Positions 14,737 to 30,942 of a stretch of DNA of 32,000 bases are shown here, piece after piece. Under the pieces are notes generated by a model. It was given only the letters and a program-made list of their open reading frames with translations, did no database searches and was not told the DNA's origin. Every line of letters begins with the position of its first letter. Position 1 is the stretch's first letter. The DNA comes from Zestosphaera tikiterensis (GTDB lineage Archaea; Thermoproteota; Thermoprotei_A; Sulfolobales; NBVN01). The translations under genes were made by a program, and so were the position numbers. The stretch spans positions 570,001 to 602,000 of the forward strand of contig NBVN01000002.1 of the NCBI GenBank assembly GCA_003056265.1. The letters run 5' to 3'.

Positions 14737-14744
14737 TCACCTCC

Positions 14745-14762
14745 GGGCCGGGCTTCCGGCCC
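14745..14762 (-). other. All-GC 7-bp hairpin abutting the helicase SD
   Basis: GGGCCGG-GCTT-CCGGCCC on the + strand (loop AAGC on the minus strand), directly 5' of GGAGGTGAATG on the minus strand. Confidence 0.5.
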
Positions 14763-14840
14763 ATTACCCCTATCCCTGAGGGACTTGGGGTTATGGAACG
14801 CCTTCATCTATCATCGACCTTTAGAAGGTCTCAAAACTTC

Positions 14841-14907
14841 GTGTGGGAGGCATTGTATGGGTTGTGTGTATGCTTTGATTGATTTGTTTGAGGTTTGCCT
14901 CCCACAC
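14841..14907. repeat. 12-bp perfect inverted repeat (GTGTGGGAGGCA ... TGCCTCCCACAC) around a 43-nt G/T-rich spacer
   Basis: Arms at 14841-14852 and 14896-14907, read directly. It lies in the 348-nt non-coding gap between the helicase and the tRNA. Confidence 0.6.
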
Positions 14908-15084
14908 ACATTAAACATCATCACCAAAAACAAACTAAAAACAACAACTTATAAACCTTCCCATCCCCGCCCTAAAGAGGCGAGGCTTTCAGTTGTAACG
15001 ACCGAAAACTCTACTCAAATTCTCACCAAGTTAAAACCTAGCTCTCCCAGACTTTCTTACTGCCTCCAATTTACTAAACGGTTA

Positions 15085-15158
15085 AGCCGCCGGCGGGATT
15101 CGAACCCGCGACCCCCGGCTTACGAGGCCGGTGCTCTACCCGGCTGAGCTACGGCGGC
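15085..15158 (-). tRNA. tRNA-Thr: tRNA-Thr (anticodon CGU), no intron, CCA not encoded
   Basis: The reverse complement folds as a 74-nt cloverleaf. Acceptor GCCGCCG/CGGCGGC, D arm GCUC/GAGC, anticodon arm CCGGC-CUCGUAA-GCCGG, variable loop GGGUC, T arm GCGGG-UUCGAAU-CCCGC, discriminator U. Confidence 0.95.
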
Positions 15159-18377: not shown

Positions 18378-19319
18378 TTGGAAGTTGCTGTTAAAATAAG
18401 GAAGCTTGTTAAGAGGTTTGGAAACACCGTAGCTGTAGACTCTCTAGACTTAGACATAAACGAGGGGGAGATCTTCGGTCTTTTAGGTCCTAACGGATCA
18501 GGTAAAACAACGACTTTGTTGATAATCTCAACGGTTTATAAACCAACTTCAGGTGAGGTTTACGTTTACGGACATGACGTAATACGTGAAGGTGATGTTG
18601 TAAGGAAGTACGTTGGGATAGCGTTTCAAGAGCCTAAAGCACTTTGGGTTGATAAGCCTTACGAGCTACTGCTTTGGCATGCTAGAGTCGTTGGCTACTC
18701 AACATCTGAAGCGAGGGAGGTAGTTAAAAACGTTATGGAGGTTTTAGGTCTTTGGGAGCATAGAAATAAATACTTCTATCAACTTAGTGGCGGGACTAGG
18801 AAGAAGGTTGAGATAGCTAAAGTACTTATTCAAAAACCTAAGATAGCTATCTTCGATGAACCAACAGCTCAGGTTGACGTCATATCAAAACATGCTTTAT
18901 GGGACGCTATAAGGGAGTTAAGGACTCAAGGATCTACGGTGATAATCGCCACTAACGACATGTTTGAAGCTGAAAGGATGTGTGAGAGGATAGCTATAAT
19001 ATATAAGGGCAAGCTTAAAGCTTTAGGAACTGTAGAGGAGCTTAAGGACTCCATACCTGAAGGCGACATCGTTGAGTTAATGCTTGATGGGGATGAAAAC
19101 ACTTACTTAAGAGCTGAAGACCTTCTTAAACAGTACGGCAAAACAGTAAGAAGTAACGACTCATTAAAGATTTTCTTAAACAAGGGTGAGGAAAGAGCTA
19201 TTGAAATTCTAGACTTGCTTAAGTCTAGAGGGTTTAAAATACGGAAGATAATGGTTAAAGAACCAAGCTTAGACGACGTCTTCTTCTACATGACCGGAGC
19301 TAAGCTTAAGGAGGGGTGA
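18378..19319 (+). CDS. ABC transporter ATP-binding protein (ABC-2/DrrA-like exporter type)
   Basis: Walker A GPNGSGKTT, Q-loop, signature LSGGTRKK, Walker B IAIFDEPT, plus a C-terminal extra domain. TTG start. Confidence 0.9.
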   Translation: MEVAVKIRKLVKRFGNTVAVDSLDLDINEGEIFGLLGPNGSGKTTTLLIISTVYKPTSGEVYVYGHDVIREGDVVRKYVGIAFQEPKALWVDKPYELLLWHARVVGYSTSEAREVVKNVMEVLGLWEHRNKYFYQLSGGTRKKVEIAKVLIQKPKIAIFDEPTAQVDVISKHALWDAIRELRTQGSTVIIATNDMFEAERMCERIAIIYKGKLKALGTVEELKDSIPEGDIVELMLDGDENTYLRAEDLLKQYGKTVRSNDSLKIFLNKGEERAIEILDLLKSRGFKIRKIMVKEPSLDDVFFYMTGAKLKEG

Positions 19320-19321
19320 GC

Positions 19322-20128
19322 ATGAATCTAAACACGTTAAGAGCGCTATACCTACTCATCCTTTGGGACTTGAATAAAATGCTTAGGAGGGCGGTTTTCG
19401 TAGCTATGCGTGTTATTTGGTTTGTAATTCAAGTCACGGTCTTCGGTTTAGCCCTCACCGCCATGGTTAGGTTAAGAGGTTCTCTTCCGGTGGATGTGAA
19501 CTATTACGAGTTCTACTTACTTGGCATATATACCTCAATGCTTTTCTCGATTAGCGTTTCACGAGCTTACGACATAGCTGAAGAATTTGAGGAAGGTATT
19601 GTAGAGTATCACTTATCACTTCCAATAAGTAGGAGGGTTTTCGCCGTAGGTAGAACTATAGGCGGCGGAATAGCTTCCTTCCTATTTACGCTTCCAATGT
19701 TTGCTGTGGTTTTATGGCTTTTAGAAGACGTTAACGTTGAAGCAGTGATTATATCACTATCTAGTGCTTTATTATTTGCTATGTCCATCACCGGCTTCGT
19801 GCTTTCCATAGTCTTAAGTCTGAAGTCCGGGGACGCTACAGACATAATGTTCGGTGTGTTGGATTCTCTACTTATAAGGCTCTCCACAGTTTTCTACCCG
19901 GCGGTTGTTTTAAGTAGGTACGCCCCCTATCTCTACGTAGCGTTGGTAAACCCTATATCGCATATAGCTGACTTCCTTAGGACACTTTTTCTTTTTGAAG
20001 AATATAGAGCGATAGCTATAGCCTCGCCGATAGCTATGGCGTCATACATACTAGGTCTTGCCGTAGGGTTCTCGAGCTTAGCCATGTATATAGTGGAGAA
20101 AAAGGTTGAAGGGGGTGGTTGGAGATAG
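19322..20128 (+). CDS. ABC-2 type transporter permease
   Basis: About 6 TM segments. The start lies 2 nt after the ATPase stop and is preceded by AAGGAGGGG. The ORF also opens at GTG 19316. Confidence 0.75.
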   Translation: MNLNTLRALYLLILWDLNKMLRRAVFVAMRVIWFVIQVTVFGLALTAMVRLRGSLPVDVNYYEFYLLGIYTSMLFSISVSRAYDIAEEFEEGIVEYHLSLPISRRVFAVGRTIGGGIASFLFTLPMFAVVLWLLEDVNVEAVIISLSSALLFAMSITGFVLSIVLSLKSGDATDIMFGVLDSLLIRLSTVFYPAVVLSRYAPYLYVALVNPISHIADFLRTLFLFEEYRAIAIASPIAMASYILGLAVGFSSLAMYIVEKKVEGGGWR

Positions 20129-20898
20129 TGGGGTATTTAAGCGCTGCTTGGACCGTCGCTTCAAGAGATATATCCAGGTTTTGGAAGTATAGGTTCTGGC
20201 TTGCCGGTCAACTAGCTATGAACTTAGCTGACGTGTTTATATTCGCGTTAGTTTTCAACAACATAGTTAATAAGGCATACATACCTGACTATCTGAAGTT
20301 CATGACGCCCGGCGTAGCAGCAATAGCTACTTTCGCAGCGGCTTTCTCCATAGGTAGGGAGGTAGGCGTTGAGATAAGGAGGGAAGTTACGCAGTATCTA
20401 CTCTCCCTACCTATGTCGAGAAGCGCCTTCGTCTTCGGGAGGATCTTAGGCGGTGCTTTAAGGGGTATGATATACCAGGTTTCGTTTCTGGTTTTAGCTG
20501 CGTTGATAGTTAACGTCCCTACAACAACTAAAGCCCTCTACATAGCCTTAACGACTGTCATGCTCACGTTCTCCATGTCTAGCCTAGCCATAGCTATCTC
20601 CACATCAACTAAAGACTTCAACCTTCAAGCAACCCTTAGGGCTTTAACGTATTACATACTCTTCTTCCTTTCAAACGTGTTCTACCCTAAGGAAGTCCTA
20701 GCCATGAGGTTTCCACCTCAAATACTTCAGATAGTGATCAACACCCCAGTCTCCTTAGCCTCAGACATATATAGATGGGGGTTTGGATACTACGAAAACG
20801 TAGATGCCGTAAGTAAAATCCTCCTCCTACTTATATGGAGCTTAACCCTAACGACGTTAGCTTCGTTAGCGTACTTAAGAAACTTAACTAAGCAATAA
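20119..20898 (+). CDS. ABC-2 type transporter permease (second subunit)
   Basis: About 6 TM segments, paralogous in layout to the preceding permease (LSLPxSR motif in both). The start is TTG 20119, or GTG 20128 overlapping the upstream stop. Confidence 0.75.
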   Translation: MEIVGYLSAAWTVASRDISRFWKYRFWLAGQLAMNLADVFIFALVFNNIVNKAYIPDYLKFMTPGVAAIATFAAAFSIGREVGVEIRREVTQYLLSLPMSRSAFVFGRILGGALRGMIYQVSFLVLAALIVNVPTTTKALYIALTTVMLTFSMSSLAIAISTSTKDFNLQATLRALTYYILFFLSNVFYPKEVLAMRFPPQILQIVINTPVSLASDIYRWGFGYYENVDAVSKILLLLIWSLTLTTLASLAYLRNLTKQ

Positions 20899-21085: not shown

Positions 21086-21098
21086 TCATATTTAAAAA
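21086..21098 (+). promoter_or_regulatory. A/T-rich TATA-like element upstream of the membrane operon
   Basis: TCATATTTAAAAA lies 14-26 nt upstream of ATG 21112, implying a leaderless or very short leader transcript. The exact box is uncertain. Confidence 0.3.
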
Positions 21099-21111
21099 TT
21101 TATAAACCTCT

Positions 21112-22029
21112 ATGAACATATCTTTTGAGGTGATTAAAGCGTCACCGCAAGCTAAAAATAAACTTCTAGCGCTAGCTATAATAGTTATACTGTTAGTAAC
21201 GGTAATAGTTGTAGGTGCTTTACTTAAAGTTAAGTTATTCAATCCTAAGGTTCCCGTATCTTCATTCGTTATATTAGCAACTCTGTTAATCGTTGGTTAC
21301 TTATTCATGATTCAAGCTATGGAGGGCGTAACCTTCCCTGTGAGGAAGATAAGCGCTTTTGATGCTATTGAGGAGGGTGTGGCTAGGTCTGTAGAGATGG
21401 GCAGGCCTGTACACGTCACCATAGGTTATGGAACTATATCCTCGTCTATGGCCCCCCAGTACGTAGCTGGTTTAGGTGTTTTAGCCCACGTTGCTAGGTT
21501 GGCTGGTAAGTACGGAGCTAAACTCATAGCTACTTTAGGCGTTCCTGAAGCTATAGCTAGCGTTGAAGAACTGGTTAGAGACGGGTATTACTCGGCTGGA
21601 AGGCCGGAACTCTATAACCCAACATATAACGTTAGATACTTTACAGATCAGCAGTTTGCGTATGCGTCGGCAGTTCAGGCAACTATAGTTAGGGAGAATG
21701 TGGGGGCGAATATTGTAGTGGGTCCGTTCTACGCTGAATCACTGATATTCATGGAGGCAGGCAATATGACTGGAGCGTTTCAAATAGCTGGAACAGCACG
21801 TGAAACCCAAATACCTTTCTTCGTAATCACAGCTGACTATGCTTTCATCGGCGAGGAGATTTTCGCTGCTGGCGCTTTAGCTTCAGGTGATAGAGTGGTT
21901 TTAGCGTCTATTAGAGGTCAAGACTTAGGTAAGTTAATCACGATAGCGCTTGTGGTCTTAGGCATTATATTGTTGGGGTTAGGTCTTAAGCTAAGTGATT
22001 GGCTTAACTGGGTTTGGACTGTGGGGTGA
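21112..22029 (+). CDS. Unknown membrane protein B1: N-terminal TM helices, soluble domain of about 200 aa, C-terminal TM helix
   Basis: 305-aa ORF with hydrophobic segments at both ends and a G/A-rich soluble core (GRPVHVTIGYG...AGKYGAKLIATLG). I recognise no catalytic motif. Confidence 0.6.
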   Translation: MNISFEVIKASPQAKNKLLALAIIVILLVTVIVVGALLKVKLFNPKVPVSSFVILATLLIVGYLFMIQAMEGVTFPVRKISAFDAIEEGVARSVEMGRPVHVTIGYGTISSSMAPQYVAGLGVLAHVARLAGKYGAKLIATLGVPEAIASVEELVRDGYYSAGRPELYNPTYNVRYFTDQQFAYASAVQATIVRENVGANIVVGPFYAESLIFMEAGNMTGAFQIAGTARETQIPFFVITADYAFIGEEIFAAGALASGDRVVLASIRGQDLGKLITIALVVLGIILLGLGLKLSDWLNWVWTVG

Positions 22030-22034
22030 GTTGA

Positions 22035-22724
22035 ATGAGCTTGGTTGTTAGGAGGGTATTACCTCAATTCATCGTGAGCTTAGTGATAATACTTATGCTG
22101 ATCTTCTACTTCTTCTATATAAACGATGACGTAGCTAAGACGTTCTCAGCAGACGATAAAGCTTTAAGTGATTGGGCTGTGATAATATCCTCCTTCGCTT
22201 TAATCGTCGGTGGTGTTGACATATTCAGGTTCCACTTAACGCAGCTTAGGAGGGGTGGCTTAAAGCAAGCGCCTTTCAGCGTAGTTACGTTGATTGCTGA
22301 GCTAACTATGGTTGTTTTCGGCGCTTACGGTCTAGCTTTAAGCTATTTAAACCCCGCTTTAGGCATAACAATAACAACTCAACCTCAGTTTAGGTGGTTA
22401 TACACGTATGTTTACGCACCAAGCGACTCCGCCATGTATTCCATACTAGTGTTTTATATAGCGTCAGCATCATATAGAGCCTTCAGGGTTAGAAATCCTA
22501 TGGCTTTACTACTACTTATAGTGGCGATAATAGTTATGTTAGGTAATACCAGCTTAGGAGCGTTGATATGGCCTGGATTCCTGCCTTTAAGGGATTGGAT
22601 TATGACAATACCTAATACCGCCGCTTTTAGACCTATAACGATAGGTGCTGGGTTAGGCGTCATAATACTAGGGCTTAGGATGCTTGTATGGAGAGAAGTT
22701 AGCTGGATGGGTAGGAGGGAGTAG
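22035..22724 (+). CDS. Unknown polytopic membrane protein B2
   Basis: 229 aa with about 6 hydrophobic segments. ATG lies 5 nt after the B1 stop, with GGGGTGAG upstream. Confidence 0.6.
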   Translation: MSLVVRRVLPQFIVSLVIILMLIFYFFYINDDVAKTFSADDKALSDWAVIISSFALIVGGVDIFRFHLTQLRRGGLKQAPFSVVTLIAELTMVVFGAYGLALSYLNPALGITITTQPQFRWLYTYVYAPSDSAMYSILVFYIASASYRAFRVRNPMALLLLIVAIIVMLGNTSLGALIWPGFLPLRDWIMTIPNTAAFRPITIGAGLGVIILGLRMLVWREVSWMGRRE

Positions 22725-22726
22725 CC

Positions 22727-23578
22727 ATGAGTTTCCTGAGTAAAGTTGAGAAAGTTTTAAGTGCGAGGGAACTTCTATATACGTTACTCTTAGTAGCTGT
22801 TATAGCTCCTATACTCTCACCTATAGGCTTACCCATAGGTATTTCAAGCAGAACTAGGGACGTATATAACTATATAGAGAATAACTTAAAGCCCGGTTGC
22901 CATGTCTACGTGGAGGTCTATTATGAAGTAGCGGCGCGAGGTGAGTTAGAGCCTGCCTTAATGGCTTTAACTAAGCAATTCTTCGATAAAGGATGTAAGA
23001 TCGTGTATGGGTCCTTGATTTCAACAGGCCCTATAGTGTTCTCGCTAATGTTGGCTGGTGCGCCAGACATATTTGCCGGTAAGGAATATGGTAAGGATTA
23101 TGTGTTCTTAGGCTACATCTCCGGTGGTGAGTCAGCAGCAGCTTCATTAGCTAAGAGTATTAAAGGCACTGTAAAAGTAGACAACTACGGCAACCCGCTT
23201 GAGACCTTACCGCTTATGAAGGAGGTCGATTCAGCAACAGACTTCGACTTAGTTGTTATAGTGTCTTCCGGGACGGATACATTTAATTACTACGTAAGGC
23301 AGTGGTACACACCATACCATACGCCGCTGTTGTTCGCAGCTTTAAGCGTTATAGCACCCTCCATAGAACCTTTCGTCGGTGCTAAACAAGCTATCGGCAT
23401 GATAGTAGGTCAAAGAGGTGCTGCTGAGTATGAATTACTAGTCGGTAGGAAGGGTTTAGGGATAGCTTCGATGGACGCTCAAAGCATCTCGCATTTGCTG
23501 ATAATAGTCTTCATAGTTTTAGGTAACGTAGTGTACTGGGGTATGAGGGTTACTTCCCGCGGAGGTGGTAGGAAATGA
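22727..23578 (+). CDS. Unknown membrane protein B3: N-terminal TM, soluble domain, C-terminal TM (architecture like B1)
   Basis: 283 aa. ATG lies 2 nt after the B2 stop, with AGGAGGGAG upstream. The C-terminal segment DAQSISHLLIIVFIVLG parallels RGQDLGKLITIALVVLG of B1. Confidence 0.6.
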   Translation: MSFLSKVEKVLSARELLYTLLLVAVIAPILSPIGLPIGISSRTRDVYNYIENNLKPGCHVYVEVYYEVAARGELEPALMALTKQFFDKGCKIVYGSLISTGPIVFSLMLAGAPDIFAGKEYGKDYVFLGYISGGESAAASLAKSIKGTVKVDNYGNPLETLPLMKEVDSATDFDLVVIVSSGTDTFNYYVRQWYTPYHTPLLFAALSVIAPSIEPFVGAKQAIGMIVGQRGAAEYELLVGRKGLGIASMDAQSISHLLIIVFIVLGNVVYWGMRVTSRGGGRK

Positions 23579-24300
23579 TTAGTTGGGAAGTTTTAGGTGC
23601 TTGGTTAGGCGCTGCTTTAGTGGTTTGGATATACAGCTTTGTCTATAGGGACAACGTGTTCTATAAGTTCGCAGAACATCTCTTTGTAGGTGTTGCGGCA
23701 GGTTATTCGATATCTTTAGCGTTAGATAGCCTTAATAGAGTGGCTATAAAGCCTTTATCGACGAACCCTGCTGTTTCATGGCATTACGTAATAGCGATTA
23801 TCTTAGGTTTACTCATGTTTATGAAATACTCTAAAAAGTATTACTGGTTGGCTAGGTATGGTGTAGGTGTTAACATAGCTGTGGGGACTGCCTTAGCGTT
23901 GAGAACCACGCCTATGGCTAACATAGTTAGACAAATAACGGCTACGATACTACCTCTATGGACGCCAGACCCCGTAACAACCCTTAATAACTGGCTCCTA
24001 GTCTTGATAACTTTAGGCGGTCTTACGTACTTCCTCTTTACGATATTCCCGAAAAAACCTGAAGCTGGTAAGCCCTCACTACCGTACTACGTCTATAGGG
24101 TACTTTACACGATAGGAATCTACGGAATGATGGTAGGTTTCGGTGCGTTATTCGCTAACACCATAATGACTAGAGTAGGGTTCTTAATCAGCATATATCT
24201 GCAGTACCTTCAACCTAACGCTTGGGCTTCTATAACTGCTGCTTTACTTGCGGCGATAGCTATAATAGCGGGTATAGTAATGGGTAGGAGTAGGAAATGA
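23575..24300 (+). CDS. Unknown polytopic membrane protein B4
   Basis: 241 aa with about 6 hydrophobic segments. ATGA start/stop overlap with B3. Confidence 0.6.
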   Translation: MISWEVLGAWLGAALVVWIYSFVYRDNVFYKFAEHLFVGVAAGYSISLALDSLNRVAIKPLSTNPAVSWHYVIAIILGLLMFMKYSKKYYWLARYGVGVNIAVGTALALRTTPMANIVRQITATILPLWTPDPVTTLNNWLLVLITLGGLTYFLFTIFPKKPEAGKPSLPYYVYRVLYTIGIYGMMVGFGALFANTIMTRVGFLISIYLQYLQPNAWASITAALLAAIAIIAGIVMGRSRK

Positions 24301-24554
24301 CTGAGGAAGTACCTGAAGACGTGTTGATAGATAAGATAGCGCGGAAGGTAGTTGAATCAAAACTTGAAACTATAGTTATTTTTTTCTTAGAAACTATAGG
24401 TCCTATGGGTAGACTCTGGTCTCAAATCGCTCGTATCTACTTACAACCACTATTAATACTTTTAGGTTCATATAGCGAAGCTTTTTTAAAGATCCTTCAA
24501 GACCCTGACAAGGTGGAGAAGCTAGTAGCTAAGATAGAACAGTTAAGCAGTTAA
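24297..24554 (+). CDS. Small acidic/amphipathic protein B5, unknown function
   Basis: 85 aa. ATGA start/stop overlap with B4. Confidence 0.5.
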   Translation: MTEEVPEDVLIDKIARKVVESKLETIVIFFLETIGPMGRLWSQIARIYLQPLLILLGSYSEAFLKILQDPDKVEKLVAKIEQLSS

Positions 24555-24579
24555 TAGATGTCAAAAATATTAATTAAGT

Positions 24580-24948
24580 GTGATTATATTGCGTGCGGAG
24601 AAAGAGTTTCGTGCTGTGAAGCTTTCAATCGATAAGGAGAATGTTAAGATAGCGGGGAGGGATGGGGAGTTACTCATAAGTTTGCCTGAGATACGTAGGG
24701 TTGGAGTGGAGAAAAAATTTAATAAAGTGCTTGCTTCCTTAGTTGTGGTTATGGCTATCATATCTTTAGCAACTTCAAACGCTCTATATCTGTTGCTGAC
24801 GTTCATTATGTTAGCAGTAACTGGAATGACAAGGGAGGAGATCTTGATAATAGAGTATGGAAATAACTTAGTTAAGGTAAGAGGCCTTCAAAAAGCGGAG
24901 CTTAATAAAGCTTTAAACTTCTTTAAAGAGTATTTCACTCACTTATAA
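24580..24948 (+). CDS. Small protein with central TM hairpin flanked by beta-rich segments, unknown function
   Basis: 122 aa, GTG start 25 nt after B5. Central segment VLASLVVVMAIISLATSNALYLLLTFIMLAVTG. I chose it over the antisense 78-aa ORF because of its coherent TM hairpin. Confidence 0.45.
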   Translation: MIILRAEKEFRAVKLSIDKENVKIAGRDGELLISLPEIRRVGVEKKFNKVLASLVVVMAIISLATSNALYLLLTFIMLAVTGMTREEILIIEYGNNLVKVRGLQKAELNKALNFFKEYFTHL

Positions 24949-26068
24949 TCTCCACATTAGCTCTTGGAATCGTAACTATTCTACCGTCCTGCAACCTAAC
25001 CTTAACCACCCTAACAGGAGATTCCGTCTCTATCTCCTGAAGCTCCACAGGCAGATCCACAACAGTGCCTACAGCACCGAAGTAGGGATATCTTATTATT
25101 CGAACGACACTCCCGACCTTCATCCTACCCTCCCCTAAAGGCTCCATACCCTCTTCACGTACGCTACCTTTCAAAGGTATTATGACCTCAGGCCTTATGA
25201 CGCCTGCCCTAACTTGAGTTACTCCGCTTAACGCTGCGTCGTTGCCGTCATTCTCTACAAATATTTTGAAAGCCCTTTCAGACATAGGTAGTTTGCCGAA
25301 ACCCTCAGTAAGTATTAAAGTATACCCTAGATTCTCCCTACCCGTGATGGCCACACCTATCCTATACCCTAGGATCTTCTCCACATCCGTTATTTTAGCA
25401 CCGCCCACGATAACTCCCTTAACGCCGACCTTCCTAGCTTTGTTCAATGCTTCATACGTTGCTAAAGAACCTCCTACTATAACCTTACCTGCGTGTGCTT
25501 CAGAAATTTTACTTTCGTCTAGAACTTCATCAGGCCGTGAGACAACTACCTCAAGCGTTCCATGAGTTTCACCGCCGAAACCTATGATGCCTTGAACGTA
25601 AGCTGCTGGAACCCCTATAACTACCGACTCCCCAGGACTTACATCCTCAACAACTCCCTTAATGTAGGCAGAGACATCAATAACTCTAGGAGGTTCTCTA
25701 ATGGTTATGTGGCCGGTAACCTCACTTACGCTTTCCACGACGCCATTTATAGGTGACGTAATAGCTTTTTTAAAGAGGCCGAATAAAGCGCTGTACTTAG
25801 CTATCACGTCACCTTGCTTTACGTTATCACCAACCTTAACGGTAACGTAGTTACTTATCTCTTCAGGGTCTATGCCTAACATCTCAGCTAACTTAACTAC
25901 GTACGGAGCTCCCTCAAGATAACATCTACCGACTATAGTGTCGAAGGAGACCTCCTGACCCTTCTTAACTAAGATCTCACCTTTAACGGGGAGTGATCTG
26001 ACCTTCCTTACGTAAGTTCTAGGAACTACAGCTAAGCCTGGCGTATAAGCGAAGCTTTCCTCACTCAA
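24935..26068 (-). CDS. Unknown protein with N-terminal barrel-sandwich-hybrid (biotinyl/lipoyl-like) fold signature and C-terminal KOW-like segment; partner of the GlmL-like ATPase
   Basis: 377 aa. KVGDNVKQGDVIAKY is a typical hybrid-barrel hairpin with no MKM biotinylation site. There is a repeated GKVIVGG...VKGVIVGG motif. C-terminal GSVVRIIRYPYFGAVGTVVDL is KOW-like. The start lies 3 nt downstream of the upstream gene's stop. Confidence 0.6.
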   Translation of the reverse strand: MSEESFAYTPGLAVVPRTYVRKVRSLPVKGEILVKKGQEVSFDTIVGRCYLEGAPYVVKLAEMLGIDPEEISNYVTVKVGDNVKQGDVIAKYSALFGLFKKAITSPINGVVESVSEVTGHITIREPPRVIDVSAYIKGVVEDVSPGESVVIGVPAAYVQGIIGFGGETHGTLEVVVSRPDEVLDESKISEAHAGKVIVGGSLATYEALNKARKVGVKGVIVGGAKITDVEKILGYRIGVAITGRENLGYTLILTEGFGKLPMSERAFKIFVENDGNDAALSGVTQVRAGVIRPEVIIPLKGSVREEGMEPLGEGRMKVGSVVRIIRYPYFGAVGTVVDLPVELQEIETESPVRVVKVRLQDGRIVTIPRANVEIISE

Positions 26069-26071
26069 TCT

Positions 26072-27922
26072 TCACACCTCCACCCTATTCATTAATTGAT
26101 GCGGGTAAAGATCCATAGACTTAAACCACCCAAGAACTAACTTCCTCCGTTCCTTATCGCTAGCCGGTAAGTAAATAGGTCTGCCCCTCCCATCTAAAAC
26201 CAAGCCTACAACACCTCCACGAACCTTCCTACTAACTGGTTTGCCGGCACCGGCGCCGAAGTCGAAGTTCCTAGAGGGTTTCACAGAAACCTCTACTTCT
26301 ACGTTATAAGGTATTGAGATCCTGACGATTTCACCAAACCTTAACACTACATTCTCCTCCCTACCATCATCGAAGGTAAGTTCTACGTCAGCTACCTTCT
26401 CACCTAACGCGTCGAAACCTTTACCAGCTACTACAGTACCTAAAGGTACTAAACACTCCTTCTCGAAAATTTCGAGAGCTATCTCCTTATACAGTTTAGA
26501 TAAAACACCTAAATGAGGTATCATGAAGACGCTGTCCTGCATTACGTACGTAAAGCCGATGGGTTGGAACGCATCTATTAATATAATCATTGATTGAGCC
26601 CTTCTAGGGGCTCTAGACAGTAACCCTCCAGTACCTATTATGTAGTTAACCCTCATCATATCTATGTAAGTTTCTTCAGCCTTCACTTCTTCGAAAATGT
26701 CTGAGATTGTCCTCTCTTTCTTCACGCCTTTAAGTTCTCTAGCTAAGTACTTGTGGTGGTTAAAAGCCATCCTTATAGACTCCCTCGCTATTGCGTGCTC
26801 CACAACCAAATCCTCAAGGGTCATGGGTATGGTTGTAGGTCTTATCATTTTATTGTAGACAATACTCATGATGTCTTCATCCGTCATATCGAAAGGTATC
26901 CACCTACGTACGTTATCTATCCCAGCTTCTTTAAAGACGTTTCCTATGCTGTAACTCATGCCTAAATTAGCGCTTACAGTCCTTAAGAACCTCCCGTCGA
27001 AAACTGAGTATACGTTAGTAGTCGCTCCACCCATACCAACCCCTAAAACGTTAACGCCCTTCATCTCAGCGAAGGTTCTTATCATTAAACCTTCAGCAGC
27101 CGGTGTGGGCATGATGTCTGTAGAGGTAAGTTTCATAAGTTTCTCATATCCTGGGGCGTGAGCCATGACGTGCTCCATAAAAAGCTCTAGTATAGCGTTT
27201 CTAGCCGGCTCAACTCTCTCAACCTCTATCTGAGGTCTTATGTTATCAACGACTCTAACGTCGAAGAAATCGGATGAGAGAATCCTCTTTATGTCTTCCC
27301 TAGCGTTTTTATTCCCAGCGTATATCACTGGCAACCTGTAGCTTACTCCAAACCTAGGTTTAGGCTTAGCCACAGCTAAGACTTCAGCCATCTCTAAAAC
27401 GTGGGTTTTATCACCGCCGTCGGTACCTCCAGCTAGGAGAACCATGTCAGGCCTTAAGAACCTCACTATATTAACTTTCTCGTGTGTCTCCCTACCGTCG
27501 TCAACAGCTATTACGTCCATCACTATAGCCCCGGCTCCTAAAGCAGCTCTTTGAGCGCTTTCCGCCGTTATACTTTTCACAACACCCATGACCAACATCT
27601 GTAGACCGCCTCCGGCACTACTTGTTGATACGTAGACGTCTATACCTGTTTTATTACCTCTGTAAGGCATTATGAACTTCAGCTCTTCTGTACTATAGTC
27701 TATTATTTTATGACCTGTTAGCTCCTCAACTTCCTTAACAGCATTTCTAACGCCTTTAGTTACGTCTTCAACGGGTTTTTCAACTGTAGTTGGTGCTTCG
27801 CCACTAGCTAGAAACTTCCACTCACCGTTTACCTTACCGAAGAATCTAGCCTTAGTTGTTGTACTTCCGACGTCGGTGGCTAAGATGAACCTAGGTTCTG
27901 AATTTAACCCGCTCATACCCAT
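26072..27922 (-). CDS. GlmL/MutL-family ASKHA (actin-like) ATPase, long form with beta-rich C-terminal extension
   Basis: 616 aa. ILATDVGSTTTKA (phosphate-1 DxGSTxxK), LLAGGTDGGD and IIGTGGLLS motifs match the glutamate mutase accessory protein family (hydantoinase-A branch). Confidence 0.75.
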   Translation of the reverse strand: MGMSGLNSEPRFILATDVGSTTTKARFFGKVNGEWKFLASGEAPTTVEKPVEDVTKGVRNAVKEVEELTGHKIIDYSTEELKFIMPYRGNKTGIDVYVSTSSAGGGLQMLVMGVVKSITAESAQRAALGAGAIVMDVIAVDDGRETHEKVNIVRFLRPDMVLLAGGTDGGDKTHVLEMAEVLAVAKPKPRFGVSYRLPVIYAGNKNAREDIKRILSSDFFDVRVVDNIRPQIEVERVEPARNAILELFMEHVMAHAPGYEKLMKLTSTDIMPTPAAEGLMIRTFAEMKGVNVLGVGMGGATTNVYSVFDGRFLRTVSANLGMSYSIGNVFKEAGIDNVRRWIPFDMTDEDIMSIVYNKMIRPTTIPMTLEDLVVEHAIARESIRMAFNHHKYLARELKGVKKERTISDIFEEVKAEETYIDMMRVNYIIGTGGLLSRAPRRAQSMIILIDAFQPIGFTYVMQDSVFMIPHLGVLSKLYKEIALEIFEKECLVPLGTVVAGKGFDALGEKVADVELTFDDGREENVVLRFGEIVRISIPYNVEVEVSVKPSRNFDFGAGAGKPVSRKVRGGVVGLVLDGRGRPIYLPASDKERRKLVLGWFKSMDLYPHQLMNRVEV

Positions 27923-27981: not shown

Positions 27982-29583
27982 CTAAAATTGCTTAAACCTT
28001 CTTAGAATCGCGCCGTTCCTAACGTTTTTATCCAGCCTTCCATTAACCACCGTAGGTCTTCCATTCACTATAACGTATCTTATACCTCTTGGGTATGAAT
28101 GCGGGTTTTCATACGTTGCGGTATCCTCTACAACGTAGTAGTTGAATATAGTTATATCTGCTTTGAAGCCAGGCCTTATCAGGCCTCTATCCCATAGCTT
28201 AAGTTTTCTAGCTGGTAGTGAAGTCATCTTTCTAATGGCCTCCGTCAAGGTTAGAGCTTTCCTCTCCCTAACGTATTTAGCGATGATTCTAGGGAAGGTT
28301 CCGTACCTTCTCGGATGTGGTTTACCCTCACCGAATTTCCCAACGGACCCGTCACTACCTATAGCTACGTAGGGGTGTGCAATCACTTTCTCTACGTCTT
28401 CCTCACTCATGCCGAATGAGACCATGCCAGTAGCTAATTCGTCATCTATGAGTAACTTCACCATAGCGTTTACGGGGTCTAAGCCTAAGCGTTCAGCCAC
28501 TTTATCCATTCTCAAGCCTTCAAATTCTTTATGTTTTAAGGAGAATGAAATCATTATATCGCTCCACGATATATACCGTTCTTCGAAAGCCACCCCTCCA
28601 AGCCTTTCAGTAAGTTCCCTTACCACAGCAGGGTCTTTAAGCTTCTTAAGGACTTCTTCCGTGCTTCCCTCCCTTATATCCTGCGGTAGGAGAGCTGAAA
28701 GAGAAGTTGAAGATGCTGTGTATGGGTAAGCATCGGCTGAAACGTCGAAACCTCTGGAGGCATAGTCTGATATGATCCCTAAAGCCGTAGTTACTTTACC
28801 CCAGTTAGGTCGTCCACTAGCTTTAAGGTGGGAGATCTCTACAGTGATCCCTGCCTTAACACCTATCGTTATGGCTTCATTTATTGAATCAAGTAAACCC
28901 ACACCTTCGTTTCTCATGTGGGTTGCGTACATACCACCGTATCTTGAAGCTACCTTAGCCAACTCAATTATCTCATCTGTTGAGGCGAAAGTCCCCGGGA
29001 TATATATTAAACCCGTGCTAAGGCCTAAAGCCCCAGCCTCCATAGCTTCCTTAACTAACTCACGCATCTTTGTTAAATCACTTTCAGACGGTTTAGAGGA
29101 CGTGAAGCCTAATACAGCAGACCTCACAGTGCCGTGACCTACTAAAGGAGCTATATTTACTGAAGGCTTAAGCGACTCTAGAGCATTTAAGTAATCGTTG
29201 AAAGACCTCCAACTCACGACAACCTCCGGATGTTCCTTTTTAATTTCTTTAATTACTTCATCTTTATTAACGTCTGTTAAAGGCGCTGGAGACCAGCCAC
29301 AGTTCCCAACAACTAACGTAGTGACTCCTTGAAGTATGTAGTTATCAGCTGTAGGCACTTCAAAAATGCTTATATCGCTGTGGTTGTGAATATCTATAAA
29401 TCCGGGAGCCACTATAAGGTTTTTAGCGTCTATGACTTCCTCGGATTTAACGCCTGTCAAATCACCTATAGCTTTTATCGTGTCTCCTACAATGCCTACG
29501 TCAGATTTAAACGGGGGTGTTCCAGAACCGTCTACTATTACGCCGTTACGTATGATTAAATCAAACTCCAATTTAAACACCAA
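27982..29583 (-). CDS. N-acyl-D-amino-acid deacylase (D-aminoacylase) family amidohydrolase
   Basis: N-terminal DLIIRNGVIVDGSG, metal motif GFIDIHNHSD, and the family-specific VVGNCG block carrying the Cys zinc ligand. 533 aa. The start is TTG 29583 or GTG 29580. Confidence 0.85.
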   Translation of the reverse strand: MVFKLEFDLIIRNGVIVDGSGTPPFKSDVGIVGDTIKAIGDLTGVKSEEVIDAKNLIVAPGFIDIHNHSDISIFEVPTADNYILQGVTTLVVGNCGWSPAPLTDVNKDEVIKEIKKEHPEVVVSWRSFNDYLNALESLKPSVNIAPLVGHGTVRSAVLGFTSSKPSESDLTKMRELVKEAMEAGALGLSTGLIYIPGTFASTDEIIELAKVASRYGGMYATHMRNEGVGLLDSINEAITIGVKAGITVEISHLKASGRPNWGKVTTALGIISDYASRGFDVSADAYPYTASSTSLSALLPQDIREGSTEEVLKKLKDPAVVRELTERLGGVAFEERYISWSDIMISFSLKHKEFEGLRMDKVAERLGLDPVNAMVKLLIDDELATGMVSFGMSEEDVEKVIAHPYVAIGSDGSVGKFGEGKPHPRRYGTFPRIIAKYVRERKALTLTEAIRKMTSLPARKLKLWDRGLIRPGFKADITIFNYYVVEDTATYENPHSYPRGIRYVIVNGRPTVVNGRLDKNVRNGAILRRFKQF

Positions 29584-29691: not shown

Positions 29692-29712
29692 ATGAAGTTA
29701 TGGTGTGTAATT

Positions 29713-30942
29713 ATGCTTAAAGAGTCTGAAGTTAGGGAGTATTTAATTAAGAAGCTTACGGATATTCTATCAATACCAACTGTAAACCCTCCAGGTAAGG
29801 ATTACGACGTATGCGCTTCCTACTTAGCTAGTGAGTTAAGAAGTTTAGGGTTAGACGTTCGTGTTGTGAGGATACCTGAGGAGTACCTAGATAAGCACTA
29901 CCCCTACGCCCCCCAGCATAGGGGGTATCCAAGAGATATAGTGTTCGCTAGGTTAGGTGAGGGTGAGCCTATACTGCATTTCAACGGTCACTACGACGTA
30001 GTTCCGCCTGGAACTGGATGGACTAAGGACCCGTTTAAACCCGTTGTTGAAGATAGTAAGATCTACGGTCGTGGAGCTACAGACATGAAAGGCGGTATAG
30101 CGTCTATACTGGGTTTTTTAAAAGTAGTAGCTGAAGAAAACCTTAGGTTTAAAGGTACTTTAGAAGTGGCTTTCGTACCTGATGAAGAATCGGGTGGGGA
30201 CGGCTCCAGATATTTAGTTGAAAGCGGTTTAACAAAACCGCGTTACGTAATAATAGGTGAGCCCTCAACATCTAAGAGAGTTGTGATAGGGCATAAAGGC
30301 TTTATAAGGGGTTTAGTCCGCGTTTTAGGTAAGCAAACACATGGTAGCGTTCCTTGGTATGGAGAGAACGCCTTCTTAAAGGCTTCCCAGCTGGCGTTGA
30401 AGTTTATGGAGCTTTACGAACCTCTATTAAACTCTAGAGCGACTTCAGCCCCTGTGAGAACCCCTCAAGAAGCGCATCCATCAATAAACCTCGGTGGGTA
30501 TGCGGAATCAACTGCAAGGAAGGATAACACAGTACCGGGTGAGTTCCTATTCAGCTTTGACAGAAGGGTTTTACCGGAGGAAAACCTCGATGAAGTCGTG
30601 AATGAATTGAAGGAATATTTTGCTAAAGCAGCTGCTAACGTTAGATATGAGGTAAGTATCTTAAGTGCTGTCCCACCGTCTTTAACGCCTGTAGAATCCG
30701 AGATAGTTAACGTAGCTAGTGTTTGCGCCGAAAAAATCACAGGCTTTAAACCTAGGGCGGAGCTCTCGCCGGGGAGGAACGACGCGGTATATTACGTAAA
30801 CTTTACGAGAAGTCAAGCGATAAACTTCGGTCCTGGCGTTGAATGGACAGCGCATGCTCCAGACGAGTATACAGACGTTGAAGAACTCGTTAAATTCGTG
30901 AATATCTACAGATGCGTAGCTGAGAAAATCCTAATGAAGTAG
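29713..30942 (+). CDS. M20-family metallopeptidase/deacylase (ArgE/DapE/acetylornithine deacetylase-like)
   Basis: HFNGHYDVVP, GRGATDMKGG, VPDEESGG, IGEPS and a C-terminal AHAPDEY provide the M20 metal and catalytic residues. ATG 29713 (MLKESEV) is preferred over 29692 on TATA spacing and family N-termini. Confidence 0.85.
   Translation: MLKESEVREYLIKKLTDILSIPTVNPPGKDYDVCASYLASELRSLGLDVRVVRIPEEYLDKHYPYAPQHRGYPRDIVFARLGEGEPILHFNGHYDVVPPGTGWTKDPFKPVVEDSKIYGRGATDMKGGIASILGFLKVVAEENLRFKGTLEVAFVPDEESGGDGSRYLVESGLTKPRYVIIGEPSTSKRVVIGHKGFIRGLVRVLGKQTHGSVPWYGENAFLKASQLALKFMELYEPLLNSRATSAPVRTPQEAHPSINLGGYAESTARKDNTVPGEFLFSFDRRVLPEENLDEVVNELKEYFAKAAANVRYEVSILSAVPPSLTPVESEIVNVASVCAEKITGFKPRAELSPGRNDAVYYVNFTRSQAINFGPGVEWTAHAPDEYTDVEELVKFVNIYRCVAEKILMK

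Follow-up and report, generated by a model that had tools for sequence, protein, structure and literature searches.

The question raised by this locus is whether six genes lying head to tail at positions 21112 to 24948 of the window (the whole stretch of 32,000 nucleotides of Zestosphaera tikiterensis DNA that was analysed) encode a membrane machine of a new kind, and what such a machine would do. A sequence-only reading had proposed a tightly coupled operon of five or six genes belonging to no recognised family. All six ORFs are indeed found in the ORF list, on the forward strand: p1 (21112-22029, 305 aa), p2 (22035-22724, 229 aa), p3 (22727-23578, 283 aa), p4 (23575-24300, 241 aa), p5 (24297-24554, 85 aa) and p6 (24580-24948, 122 aa). 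The junctions described were confirmed by direct reading. The gap between p1 and p2 is 5 nt, with GGGGTGAG across the p1 stop, and p2 is followed by p3 after AGGAGGGAG and a 2-nt gap; ATGA stop/start overlaps join p3 to p4 (23575-23578) and p4 to p5 (24297-24300), and 25 nt separate p5 from p6. The gap 5' of p1 (213 nt) contains an A/T-rich TATA-like block, TTTAAAAATTTATAAA (21091-21106, forward strand), which is a candidate promoter element. It stands merely 6-21 nt from the ATG at 21112, a spacing that fits better with a leaderless transcript from near GTG 21130, and p1 may start at this GTG instead.

The universal core of this operon comprises four genes, p5 and p6 being accessory. On co-conservation, the point on which the sequence-only reading had offered itself to refutation, the order p1-p2-p3-p4 proved essentially invariant across 86 loci, which come from Thermoproteota on the archaeal side and from Bacillota and FCB-group phyla on the bacterial side, and this conservation of p1-p4 together supports the proposed stoichiometrically coupled set of membrane proteins. 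p2 is present in 81 of the 86 loci, invariably preceded by p1. Tight or overlapping spacing is kept in all phyla, with median gaps of 21, 4 and -1 nt for p1/p2, p2/p3 and p3/p4, and natural p3-p4 fusions are found. Each of the four proteins has hundreds to thousands of homologs (808 clusters for p1, 443 for p3 and 2,902, at 50% identity, for the p4 family); p3 is carried by at least 530 species genomes, whose hosts are mostly anaerobic fermenters. Entire cassettes also occur in tandem, in two to three copies, at no fewer than 17 loci. Such copies share 43-51% identity in each of the four subunits, and differ most in the predicted outside domain of p3.

The claim that no family could be recognised stands for three of the four proteins. 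No match was obtained for p2, p3 or p4 in Pfam, NCBIfam, PADLOC or PDB sequence searches, the Pfam searches covering 21-23 members of each family (21 for p2, also in the PDB search). The claim fails for p1, which is a full-length member of Pfam DUF6754 (PF20539), scoring 226.8 bits where the cut-off is 27, with E = 3e-67 and 237 of the 257 profile positions covered. This entry, however, denotes a domain of unknown function and spans one subunit of four; DUF6754 was mentioned in no paper found by a literature search. In the p1-p4 core, neither an ATPase nor a redox-cofactor motif nor a defence signature emerged from searches of Pfam, NCBIfam and PADLOC or from the alignments, and the core alignments contain no invariant Cys/His and no FMN or Fe-S motifs.

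The alternation of a bitopic and a polytopic protein, repeated once, is real, and charge bias, signal peptides and fusions further indicate that the two halves would be oppositely oriented in the membrane, forming two inverted modules: p1 and p2 with a cytoplasmic domain, p3 and p4 with an outside domain. In p1, a core TM helix, preceded in archaea by an extra N-terminal one, leads into an alpha/beta domain some 195 aa long, and a further TM helix closes the protein. p1 is predicted to be N-out with its domain inside, because the TM helix is followed by a K/R-rich stretch and diderm homologs have signal peptides. p2 has six predicted TM helices and, from its computed charge bias, a predicted N-in, C-in topology, with a conserved SAxYRAFRxR motif at the cytoplasmic end of TM4. 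p3 is made of an N-in TM helix, a domain some 210 aa long and, at the C-terminus, a long TM helix that bears the motif MDAQSxxH...LGN and is followed by a K/R-rich tail; both its N and C tails are K/R-rich, and its domain is predicted to be extracytoplasmic. p4 has six TM helices, and a seventh in archaea, as well as conserved cytoplasmic motifs (YKDNPFYKxAEH and FFSxEHKG) and an outer loop that tolerates large insertions. The N-out orientation predicted for p4 is based on signal-anchor extensions and on naturally occurring fusions of the form p3-TM-p4. The whole complex would contain about 16 TM helices. Conservation is highest on the cytoplasmic face, above all in the p1 domain, and lowest on the outer face, and few polar residues are conserved mid-membrane.

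AF2 models of high confidence (pLDDT 91 for p1 and 92 for p3) give each of these two proteins one alpha/beta domain of a generic kind. The p1 domain contains about 30 invariant residues, largely charged; that of p3 is a single Rossmann-like lobe with six strands, and G122, D124, D152, Q221, E236 and N267 are invariant in p3. Foldseek, run against the PDB for p3, returned generic alpha/beta matches for both, with no specific solved relative. The models have their order of secondary-structure elements in common, and a calibrated profile comparison (29.3, against 15.4 +/- 2.5 for decoys, none of 40 scoring as high) gives a weak signal linking the two domains. No mutual similarity could be detected between p2 and p4.

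The partner found most consistently with the cassette, a GlmL-like/BSH gene pair on the reverse strand (24935-27922), falls just outside the operon limits first drawn. In the BSH protein (24935-26068, 377 aa), a barrel-sandwich-hybrid domain at the N-terminus is followed by a Rossmann-like region and then by a KOW-like C-terminal part; the protein matches RnfC_N weakly (23-24.9 bits against a cut-off of 25.6). In archaea, in Bacillota and in Latescibacteria its gene adjoins the cassette, as it does at 37 of the 80 metagenome loci, and the BSH protein is a putative cytoplasmic partner of the cassette. The GlmL/MutL-like putative ATPase (26072-27922, 616 aa) is of the ASKHA type and belongs to a long subfamily of the hydantoinase branch; its gene is paired with BSH throughout the loci examined, immediately upstream of it in 48 of 59. 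Like GlmL/MutL of B12-dependent glutamate mutase and Or-4 of ornithine degradation, it matches PF13941 (404 bits) and occurs in amino-acid catabolic contexts. Unlike them, it is about 150 aa longer and scores under the NCBIfam cut-offs for GlmL, Or-4 and TIGR01319. It also differs from GlmL/MutL in being always accompanied by BSH, and frequently by the membrane cassette, and in that none of the neighbourhoods examined holds a mutase or B12-domain gene.

p5, a small helical protein with no Pfam match and a Bathyarchaeia homolog of 51% identity, had been taken for the last gene of the operon. It is ATGA-coupled to p4 here, but elsewhere it heads or joins the GlmL-like/BSH pair: at many loci, including L170 from Bacillota, a p5-like gene lies ahead of GlmL-BSH or ahead of p1. 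p5 is probably a link or adapter between the cassette and the GlmL-BSH module. p6, in which a TM hairpin separates a soluble N-terminal part from a C-terminal part, is convergent with BSH, overlapping it by 14 nt at the 3' end. Proteins like p6 (118-122 aa) occupy the same place beside BSH at nine other loci; it is a lineage-specific gene of Thermoproteota, kept convergent with BSH.

As for the wider neighbourhood, the ABC-2 exporter genes upstream do not accompany the cassette in related loci. The downstream amino-acid/peptide context fared better, since its amidohydrolase and peptidase genes are conserved in archaea, though it may only suggest solute or peptide handling. The Amidohydro_3-type amidohydrolase (27982-29583, reverse strand), so labelled by Pfam, is conserved archaeal context and not a subunit, and Amidohydro_1/3 genes stand beside the system at seven other loci; the M20/M28 peptidase (29692-30942, forward strand), likewise labelled by Pfam, is recurrent in archaea, with M20 genes again at three loci. 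In five archaeal lineages the cassette neighbours amidohydrolases, M20, S66, asparaginase-type enzymes and D-Ser-dehydratase-like genes, and in Latescibacteria it follows an aminotransferase. Where GlmL-BSH occurs without a cassette, the loci have genes for S58 and C26 peptidases and for a PLP enzyme in place of the cassette. Flanking genes in the FCB group are housekeeping, not catabolic (PGI, transketolase, NTP-transferase, MetK). Genes of DUF4388/PATAN type, for cNMP-binding proteins and for histidine kinases occasionally lie nearby.

We tentatively favour, at somewhat short of an even chance, a solute transporter of a new kind, which would depend on a binding domain and feed the catabolism of amino acids or peptides. 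In this view p1-p4 would assemble into a single hetero-oligomeric complex of the inner membrane, with one two-gene design present in two copies inverted relative to each other, p1 pairing with the N-in p2 and p3 with the N-out p4. The variable external domain of p3 would be a tethered substrate-binding element and the antiparallel p2/p4 pair the translocation path, while the p1 domain would dock onto the conserved cytoplasmic loops of p2/p4 and gate or couple the inner side. As the core has no ATPase, the driving force would be an ion gradient. In Thermoproteota, some Bacillota and Latescibacteria, p5 would join this complex to the cytoplasmic GlmL-like/BSH enzyme pair, which would process the imported compound, possibly an amino acid, a peptide or a cyclic amide in view of the gene neighbours of GlmL/BSH. 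Inverted pseudo-symmetry is a typical feature of transporters, so that the opposite orientation predicted for p2 and p4 argues for transport, as does the tandem expansion of cassettes, typical of transporters differing in specificity. The co-occurrence of the four genes in a fixed order, the weak link between the p1 and p3 domains, a pattern of conservation that runs from a variable outer face (with divergent p3 domains in tandem copies and insertions in the p4 outer loop) to a conserved cytoplasmic one, the archaeal catabolic context and the lack of ATPase, redox or defence features in the core also count in favour of this reading.

Several observations run against a transporter: the absence of homology to any transporter family, the scarcity of conserved polar residues mid-membrane, the lack of detectable p2/p4 similarity, the housekeeping flanks in FCB-group bacteria and a negative riboswitch search upstream of the cassette at 24 bacterial loci. 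In addition, the invariant charged residues of p1 resemble an enzyme as much as a gate, and p3 has one lobe where classical binding proteins have two. A comparison with the TRAP (DctPQM) and TTT (TctABC) systems is instructive. They also combine an extracytoplasmic alpha/beta binding element with two different integral membrane components, have a core without ATPase, occur as multiple paralogs per genome and are associated with catabolic operons, as we infer for p1-p4. On the other hand, there is no sequence homology (Pfam being negative for p2-p4), the p3 domain is single-lobed and TM-anchored at both ends where theirs is soluble or lipid-anchored, p2 and p4 are equal-sized and antiparallel, and p1-p4 has four subunits, including a conserved one with a cytoplasmic domain.

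It is unlikely that the GlmL-like protein, BSH and p5 would instead constitute a cytoplasmic motor that docks on the p1 domain and powers p2/p4, as a new class of ATP-driven translocase. Linkage of p5/GlmL/BSH with the cassette takes no fewer than six arrangements across archaea, Bacillota and Latescibacteria; the seven genes lie on one strand in Bacillota, as p5-GlmL-BSH-p1-p2-p3-p4, and also at many metagenome loci, in several gene orders. Supporting this idea, p5 shows translational coupling to p4 in this operon and, in L170, runs over the start of p1; within the membrane complex, conservation peaks on the cytoplasmic surface; and BSH is 46-48% identical between archaea and Latescibacteria. 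However, GlmL/BSH is absent within 6 kb of most FCB-group cassettes, and half of the well-flanked GlmL-BSH loci have no cassette within 10 kb. That each occurs separately fits a transporter plus a catabolic enzyme better than obligate subunits. Moreover, we know of no ASKHA-powered transporter, and the ATPase activity of this GlmL subfamily is itself putative.

Next in probability, and likewise improbable, would be a membrane enzyme or ion-translocating energy converter, in which catalysis by the p1 domain, possibly with GlmL-BSH, would be coupled to ion movement through p2/p4. The enzyme-like charge conservation in p1, the housekeeping neighbourhoods in FCB-group phyla and the prevalence of anaerobic fermenters among the hosts are consistent with it, as are an analogy of layout with Na+-translocating decarboxylases and the parallel with Rnf/Na+-NQR. 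The latter have an antiparallel six-TM pair of about 200 aa each (RnfA/E = NqrE/D), a bitopic subunit with an outside domain (RnfG = NqrC), a TM-anchored subunit with a cytoplasmic domain (RnfB/NqrF) and a soluble partner with an N-terminal barrel-sandwich-hybrid (RnfC/NqrA), to whose RnfC_N/NQRA_N domains BSH shows its weak matches. Yet none of the E. coli Rsx subunits showed profile similarity in a comparison whose positive control (RsxA-RsxE) scored 98.8%, and the Rnf-Nqr Pfam match is absent in p2 and p4. The cassette has neither an RnfD/NqrB-like subunit nor conserved Cys/His, FMN-attachment or Fe-S motifs, its partner is a GlmL-like putative ATPase and not a flavoprotein, the BSH sequence has no biotinylation-type motif, and tandem multi-copy cassettes would be unusual for such systems.

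Less probable again, and quite doubtful, is an envelope-biogenesis machine, a flippase or exporter of a lipid-linked or glycan precursor whose two alpha/beta domains would act on the substrate, one at either face of the membrane. The top Foldseek matches of p3 include halves of GT-B glycosyltransferases, but these are generic, with TM-scores of about 0.3. NTP-transferase, PGM/PMM, PGI and NAD-epimerase genes are neighbours in Zixibacteria, Delongbacteria and Bacillota, with a lipoprotein as fifth gene in Zixibacteria; the archaeal context, however, is catabolic, the diderm, monoderm and archaeal hosts have no common envelope precursor, and the GlmL/BSH linkage would be left unexplained. Finally, a transmembrane sensor in which p3 would sense a ligand outside and p1 relay it inside is very improbable: it would suit the predicted domains on either side of the membrane and the signalling-type genes sometimes nearby, but those genes are sporadic, no signalling output domain is recognisable and twelve polytopic TM helices are too many for a sensor.

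Altogether, the p1-p4 operon probably marks a membrane machine not described before, with a nutrient transporter as its likeliest identity.

The six ORFs p1 to p6 were found on the plus strand exactly where the sequence-only reading had placed them: p1 at 21112-22029, p2 at 22035-22724, p3 at 22727-23578, p4 at 23575-24300, p5 at 24297-24554 and p6 at 24580-24948. The junctions are also as it had described them. p1 and p2 are spaced by 5 nt, with GGGGTGAG spanning the p1 stop, and the 2-nt spacing of p2 and p3 is preceded by AGGAGGGAG; ATGA overlaps join p3 to p4 (23575-23578) and p4 to p5 (24297-24300), and p6 is separated from p5 by 25 nt. The 213-nt gap upstream of p1 does contain an A/T block, at 21091-21106. 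This TATA-like block lies only 6-21 nt upstream of ATG 21112, too short for a typical archaeal promoter-to-start distance, and the equivalent of GTG 21130 is the start codon of P0242, a 90%-identical p1 homolog of 299 aa. On this basis, the p1 start codon is ambiguous and may be 21130 instead of 21112. At the other end, the 3' ends of p6 (+) and of a barrel-sandwich-hybrid gene (BSH, -) overlap by 14 nt (24935-24948), and this convergent pair is kept in other Thermoproteota loci (L087, L088 and L090-L095). The window also carries a tRNA-Thr gene, anticodon CGU, at 15085-15158 (-); the mechanically called 153-aa ORF that overlaps it (14686-15147, +) is probably no gene.

We then considered how far these genes are kept together elsewhere. 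The p1 family comprises 808 homolog clusters, p3 443 and p4 447, and an exhaustive p4 profile search returned 2,902 clusters at 50% identity, 2,226 of them with E <= 1e-10. A scan of species-representative genomes found p3 in at least 530 genomes; the matches listed come from Zixibacteria, WOR-3, Eisenbacteria, Ignavibacteria, Latescibacteria and Stahlbacteria as well as from Bacillota (Fermentithermobacillaceae, Eubacteriales) and Thermoproteota. In 86 fetched loci, whose ORFs were called and then subjected to iterative HMM searches, p1 is present in 74, p2 in 81, p3 in all 86 and p4 in 85, the missing genes being explained by contig ends, and the four match sets share no members. The order p1-p2-p3-p4 is constant in these loci with one exception, so that gene order, proposed as a check by the sequence-only reading, is kept across archaea and bacteria. 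Median intergenic gaps across phyla are 21 nt for p1/p2, 4 nt for p2/p3 and -1 nt for p3/p4. At 17 loci or more, the whole cassette (p1-p4) occurs in two or three tandem copies, with median identities of 51% for p1, 46% for p2, 43% for p3 and 51% for p4. The tandem cassettes are old paralogs, and these identities of 43-51% indicate that each cassette is a cognate set. In addition, p3 and p4 are naturally fused in P0448 and P0493 (598 aa), their halves being joined through one additional TM helix and an acidic stretch. Taken together, co-conservation, fixed order, tight gaps, cognate paralogs and p3-p4 fusions provide strong comparative evidence that p1-p4 form a four-subunit complex. What had been proposed as a novel membrane complex of five or six genes is conserved and matches none of the known kinds tested; its core consists of four genes, and its partner module, made of p5 and the GlmL-like and BSH genes, extends outside the 21086-24948 region originally considered. 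Within this first set of 86 loci, p5 and p6 are confined to archaeal-type loci.

Besides tandem copies, some genomes carry the cassette at two distant chromosomal sites, such as L013 and L020 (CP062796.1), or L030 and L082 in a single Zixibacteriota MAG. The gene directly after p4 in Zixibacteria (L002:9513-10169, L036:7516-8625) encodes a conserved helical lipoprotein of 219-370 aa, with a signal peptide followed by a Cys and no Pfam match, which may be a lineage-specific fifth component. The bacterial p1 ORFs L082:74-1066 and L083:21-953 extend upstream into fibronectin-III-like sequence (YYYxVxAxD...SxxS); this could be a genuine N-terminal domain in the periplasm or could result from the calling of the longest ORF.

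Contrary to the statement that no family could be recognised, p1 is a member of Pfam DUF6754 (PF20539): it aligns to positions 12-248 of the 257-position profile and scores 226.8 bits (cut-off 27), and PF20539 is present in all listed p1 homologs. Our literature search found no paper naming DUF6754. This is the sole family match among p1-p6: in the profile-HMM searches, which had also been suggested as a check, neither Pfam nor NCBIfam matched p2, p3 or p4, and Pfam scans of single diverse members (21 of p2, 23 of p3 and 20 of p4) yielded nothing beyond scattered TM noise below threshold. Searches of the PDB by sequence and by profile with p1, p2, p3, p4, BSH and the GlmL-like protein returned nothing significant, with no match at E < 0.1 for the p2 and p4 profiles against PDB sequences, and neither Cys nor His is invariant anywhere in the p1-p4 alignments. 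The p4 homologs P0191, P0201, P0202 and P0231 bear the JGI product labels "nitrate reductase gamma subunit" or "lipoprotein signal peptidase". Pfam lends these labels no support, and they seem to be errors of annotation.

Confident AF2 models of p1 (pLDDT 91, pTM 0.84) and p3 (pLDDT 92, pTM 0.86) each display TM helices flanking one alpha/beta domain, in a common order of a helix, six beta-alpha units and a long C-terminal TM helix. When both models were compared with the PDB by Foldseek, all matches were generic Rossmann-like folds at TM-scores of about 0.2 to 0.4, namely GT-B halves, TtuA, dehydrogenases, a SIS-like protein and MTH777 (TMt 0.54), and by this comparison neither domain has a specific solved relative. 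The profiles of the two soluble domains align co-linearly over alpha1-beta1-alpha2-beta2-alpha3 in hhalign (P 8e-4; score 29.3 versus 15.4 +/- 2.5, maximum 19.9, for 40 block-shuffled decoys), a weak but decoy-calibrated signal suggestive of an ancient duplication. A recent duplication of the gene pair can be rejected, as no similarity between p2 and p4 is detectable by BLASTP or hhalign and the p1-p3 signal is weak.

Charged residues, signal peptides and the p3-p4 fusions allowed us to propose an orientation for each subunit. The stretch of p1 that follows its core TM helix contains about 4.9 K/R per 15 residues, diderm homologs begin with a signal-peptide-like segment followed by a TM helix, and the window protein has one extra N-terminal TM helix; all three features suggest that the conserved domain lies in the cytoplasm. 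The N and C tails of p3 are K/R-rich (3.7 and 4.0) and its domain starts with acidic residues, which points to an outside domain. In the p3-p4 fusions, one added TM helix and an acidic segment are found between the cytoplasmic p3 tail and p4, and in other p4 members a signal anchor and an outside domain precede p4. Both layouts would place the p4 N-terminus outside, which agrees with two further features, a loop rich in K/R that follows TM3 and a seventh TM helix with an RK tail in archaeal p4. Finally, K/R-rich loops after TM2 and TM4 suggest that the p2 N-terminus is inside. With these orientations, (p1+p2) and (p3+p4) would be inverted copies of the same two-gene design.

Conservation is likewise side-specific. 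The cytoplasmic face is the most conserved, with 3.16 bits for the p1 domain, 3.5-3.7 for p4 loops 1 and 3 and about 3.4 for p2 TM4-TM5, against 1.2-2.4 bits for the outer loops and 2.5 for the p3 domain. The p4 outer loop after TM4 tolerates insertions of 100-390 aa in many family members; others bear instead an N-terminal signal anchor and an outside domain of 130-220 aa. Apart from an EF-hand in P0388, the segments added outside in P0391, P0407, P0465, P0485, P0492, P0388, P0445, P0471 and P0396 have no Pfam match.

In the window, the cassette is followed on the minus strand by the BSH gene (24935..26068, 377 aa) and a GlmL-like gene (26072..27922, 616 aa). In five archaeal lineages, represented by the window, L087 (Desulfurococcaceae) and L006, L088 and L089 (Bathyarchaeia), the same four genes lie near the cassette, no more than a few kb away. 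They encode a GlmL/MutL-like protein (610-626 aa), BSH (377 aa), a p6-like protein (~120 aa) and an Amidohydro_1/3 protein, and their order and orientation vary between lineages. The association extends to bacteria: in Latescibacteria, p1 is immediately preceded, on its own strand, by a BSH homolog 46-48% identical to that of Thermoproteota, and a Bacillota genome has p5-like (94 aa)-p1-p2-p3-p4-GlmL-BSH on one strand. In a BSH-seeded set of 80 metagenome loci, 48 of the 59 with room for GlmL have it immediately upstream of BSH. The cassette adjoins GlmL/BSH in 37 of the 80 loci, and it is complete in 9 of the 18 loci whose flanks both reach 6 kb or more. At least six arrangements were observed (p1-p4-p5-GlmL-BSH, GlmL-BSH-p1-p4, p5-GlmL-BSH-p1-p4, GlmL-BSH-p5-p1-p4, a divergent one and that of the window, convergent with p6), p5 thus "floating" between the cassette and the GlmL-BSH module. 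Most cassettes of FCB-group phyla have no GlmL/BSH within 6 kb. This absence and the 9 of 18 loci show that the two modules are strongly linked but separable.

Neither partner could be assigned to a known protein. The GlmL-like protein passes the Pfam MutL threshold (404 bits) but stays below all NCBIfam GlmL-family cut-offs (230.8 versus 475, 225.3 versus 600 and 164.7 versus 204), as does its Bacillota homolog, and is about 150 aa longer than the GlmL family. Since, moreover, no B12-dependent mutase gene was found in any neighbourhood examined, it cannot be regarded as GlmL, the methylaspartate mutase accessory protein. A literature search on GlmL and related terms gave nothing relevant, "MutL" being confusable with the mismatch-repair protein. 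BSH scores 23.0-24.9 bits against RnfC_N (cut-off 25.6) and aligns to RsxC by hhalign with P = 0.008 over 36 columns, and its profile matches neither NqrA nor RnfC in the PDB; support for an identity as NqrA or RnfC does not extend beyond the N-terminal hairpin.

The archaeal neighbourhoods further contain an M20/M28 peptidase, an asparaginase, an S66 LD-carboxypeptidase, a D-Ser-dehydratase-like gene and DUF1028 with a PG-binding domain. S58 (DmpA-type) and C26 peptidases and a PLP enzyme stand alongside GlmL-BSH at loci devoid of the cassette, and an aminotransferase lies upstream of BSH in Latescibacteria. FCB-group contexts correspond to lineage-specific housekeeping synteny: HPr-EI-PGI-cassette-lipoprotein-NTP transferase-MetK in Zixibacteria, transketolase-cassette-Zincin_1 in Eisenbacteria and a DUF4388 neighbour in WOR-3. 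No riboswitch that could hint at a ligand was found in 24 bacterial loci. Upstream in the window, an ABC ATPase and two ABC-2 type permeases (18378-20898, +, start/stop overlaps at 19316-19319 and 20119-20128) apparently form an independent exporter operon. These genes are absent next to the cassette at L006, L087, L088, L089 and most bacterial loci, and a link of the cassette to this exporter is therefore rejected.

The best-supported reading, which we hold tentatively and at somewhat less than even odds, is that p1-p4 are a solute uptake system of a new kind. In this system, the substrate would be bound by the variable p3 domain outside the membrane, the antiparallel p2/p4 pair would provide the translocation pathway, and the conserved cytoplasmic p1 domain would gate or couple at the conserved inner loops. 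As the core is devoid of an ATPase, the energy source could be an ion gradient. In some lineages, p5 might join the complex to the GlmL-like/BSH pair, putative ATP-dependent enzymes that would act on an imported amino-acid, peptide or amide compound. Supporting this idea are the inverted architecture, the expansion of whole-cassette paralogs, the most divergent outer face, the archaeal catabolic context and the separability from GlmL-BSH. On the other hand, it is weakened by the absence of homology to any transporter, the enzyme-like conservation of p1 and the housekeeping neighbours in FCB-group phyla.

The recurrent linkage to the GlmL-like gene is what a translocase powered by an ATPase of the ASKHA (actin/Hsp70-fold) type would be built on; we consider it unlikely, the separability of the two modules speaking rather for uptake. 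A broader and slightly less likely proposal is that p5, the GlmL-like ATPase, BSH and p1-p4 make up a membrane machine of a class not recognised before. Its core would be a hetero-tetramer of inverted topology that bears an alpha/beta domain on either side of the membrane, and the machine would be driven or serviced by an ASKHA rather than a P-loop ATPase. If true, such a machine would represent a new energy-coupling principle for prokaryotic membrane transport and would predate or cross the archaea-bacteria divide.

About as unlikely as that machine is a membrane enzyme or ion pump of Rnf-like layout. Rnf/Nqr is the closest known system to the cassette in layout, and the enzyme-like conservation of p1 would suit it. 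However, hhalign of the p1-p4 profiles with E. coli RsxA-G gave P > 0.02 throughout (P >= 0.22 for p2 and p4 with RsxA/RsxE), the RsxA-RsxE control reaching 98.8%, and none of 41 p2/p4 members has an Rnf-Nqr Pfam match. The Rnf/Nqr cofactor ligands (6-TM-pair Cys, FMN-attachment Thr motif, Fe-S Cys clusters) are missing from p1-p4, an SGT stretch of p3 not being conserved, and the only likeness in sequence is the borderline RnfC_N signal at the BSH N-terminus. Homology to Rnf/Nqr is thus rejected. A flippase for an envelope precursor, to which the housekeeping neighbours of FCB-group cassettes leave some room, is improbable beside the catabolic context in archaea, and a sensor is very improbable.

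As for the proposed uptake function, TRAP/TTT systems come closest, but they share no homology with p1-p4 and differ in subunit design; member-by-member Pfam scans of p2 and p4 gave no significant match to TRAP, TTT, MFS or other Pfam transporter families. Classical periplasmic substrate-binding proteins have two hinged alpha/beta lobes, whereas the p3 model has a single six-stranded alpha/beta domain, and none appears in the Foldseek top 50 for p3. No ABC domain (Walker-A/ABC-signature ATPase) is found in p1-p6. A mannose-type PTS (EIIA/B/C/D) is rejected, since p1 has no invariant His or Cys and there are no EII Pfam matches; HPr and EI adjoin the cassette in Zixibacteria only. None of the eight proteins searched matches a PADLOC model of an anti-phage defence system. 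The cassette therefore fails the defining features of ABC, PTS, MFS and defence systems. It falls outside every kind of membrane system compared, with the main caveat that p2 and p4 were compared by sequence alone and could have a known transporter fold.

A literature search found no description of this gene set. The four-subunit complex would span thousands of archaeal and bacterial lineages, including abundant sediment and hot-spring groups such as Bathyarchaeia, Zixibacteria, WOR-3, Eisenbacteria and Ignavibacteria. It lacks both a characterised relative and a solved structure, and its architecture has no counterpart among the transporter and bioenergetic families tested. With its genes delimited this precisely, the set is ready for cloning and testing. 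If the GlmL-like ATPase proves to be its motor or partner, this would be the first role for the widespread GlmL/MutL family outside B12-mutase operons, and a new mode of energy coupling could emerge. Should the complex prove to be a transporter, a new transporter family would be established, and a gap would be closed in how the metabolism of uncultured organic-matter degraders is reconstructed.
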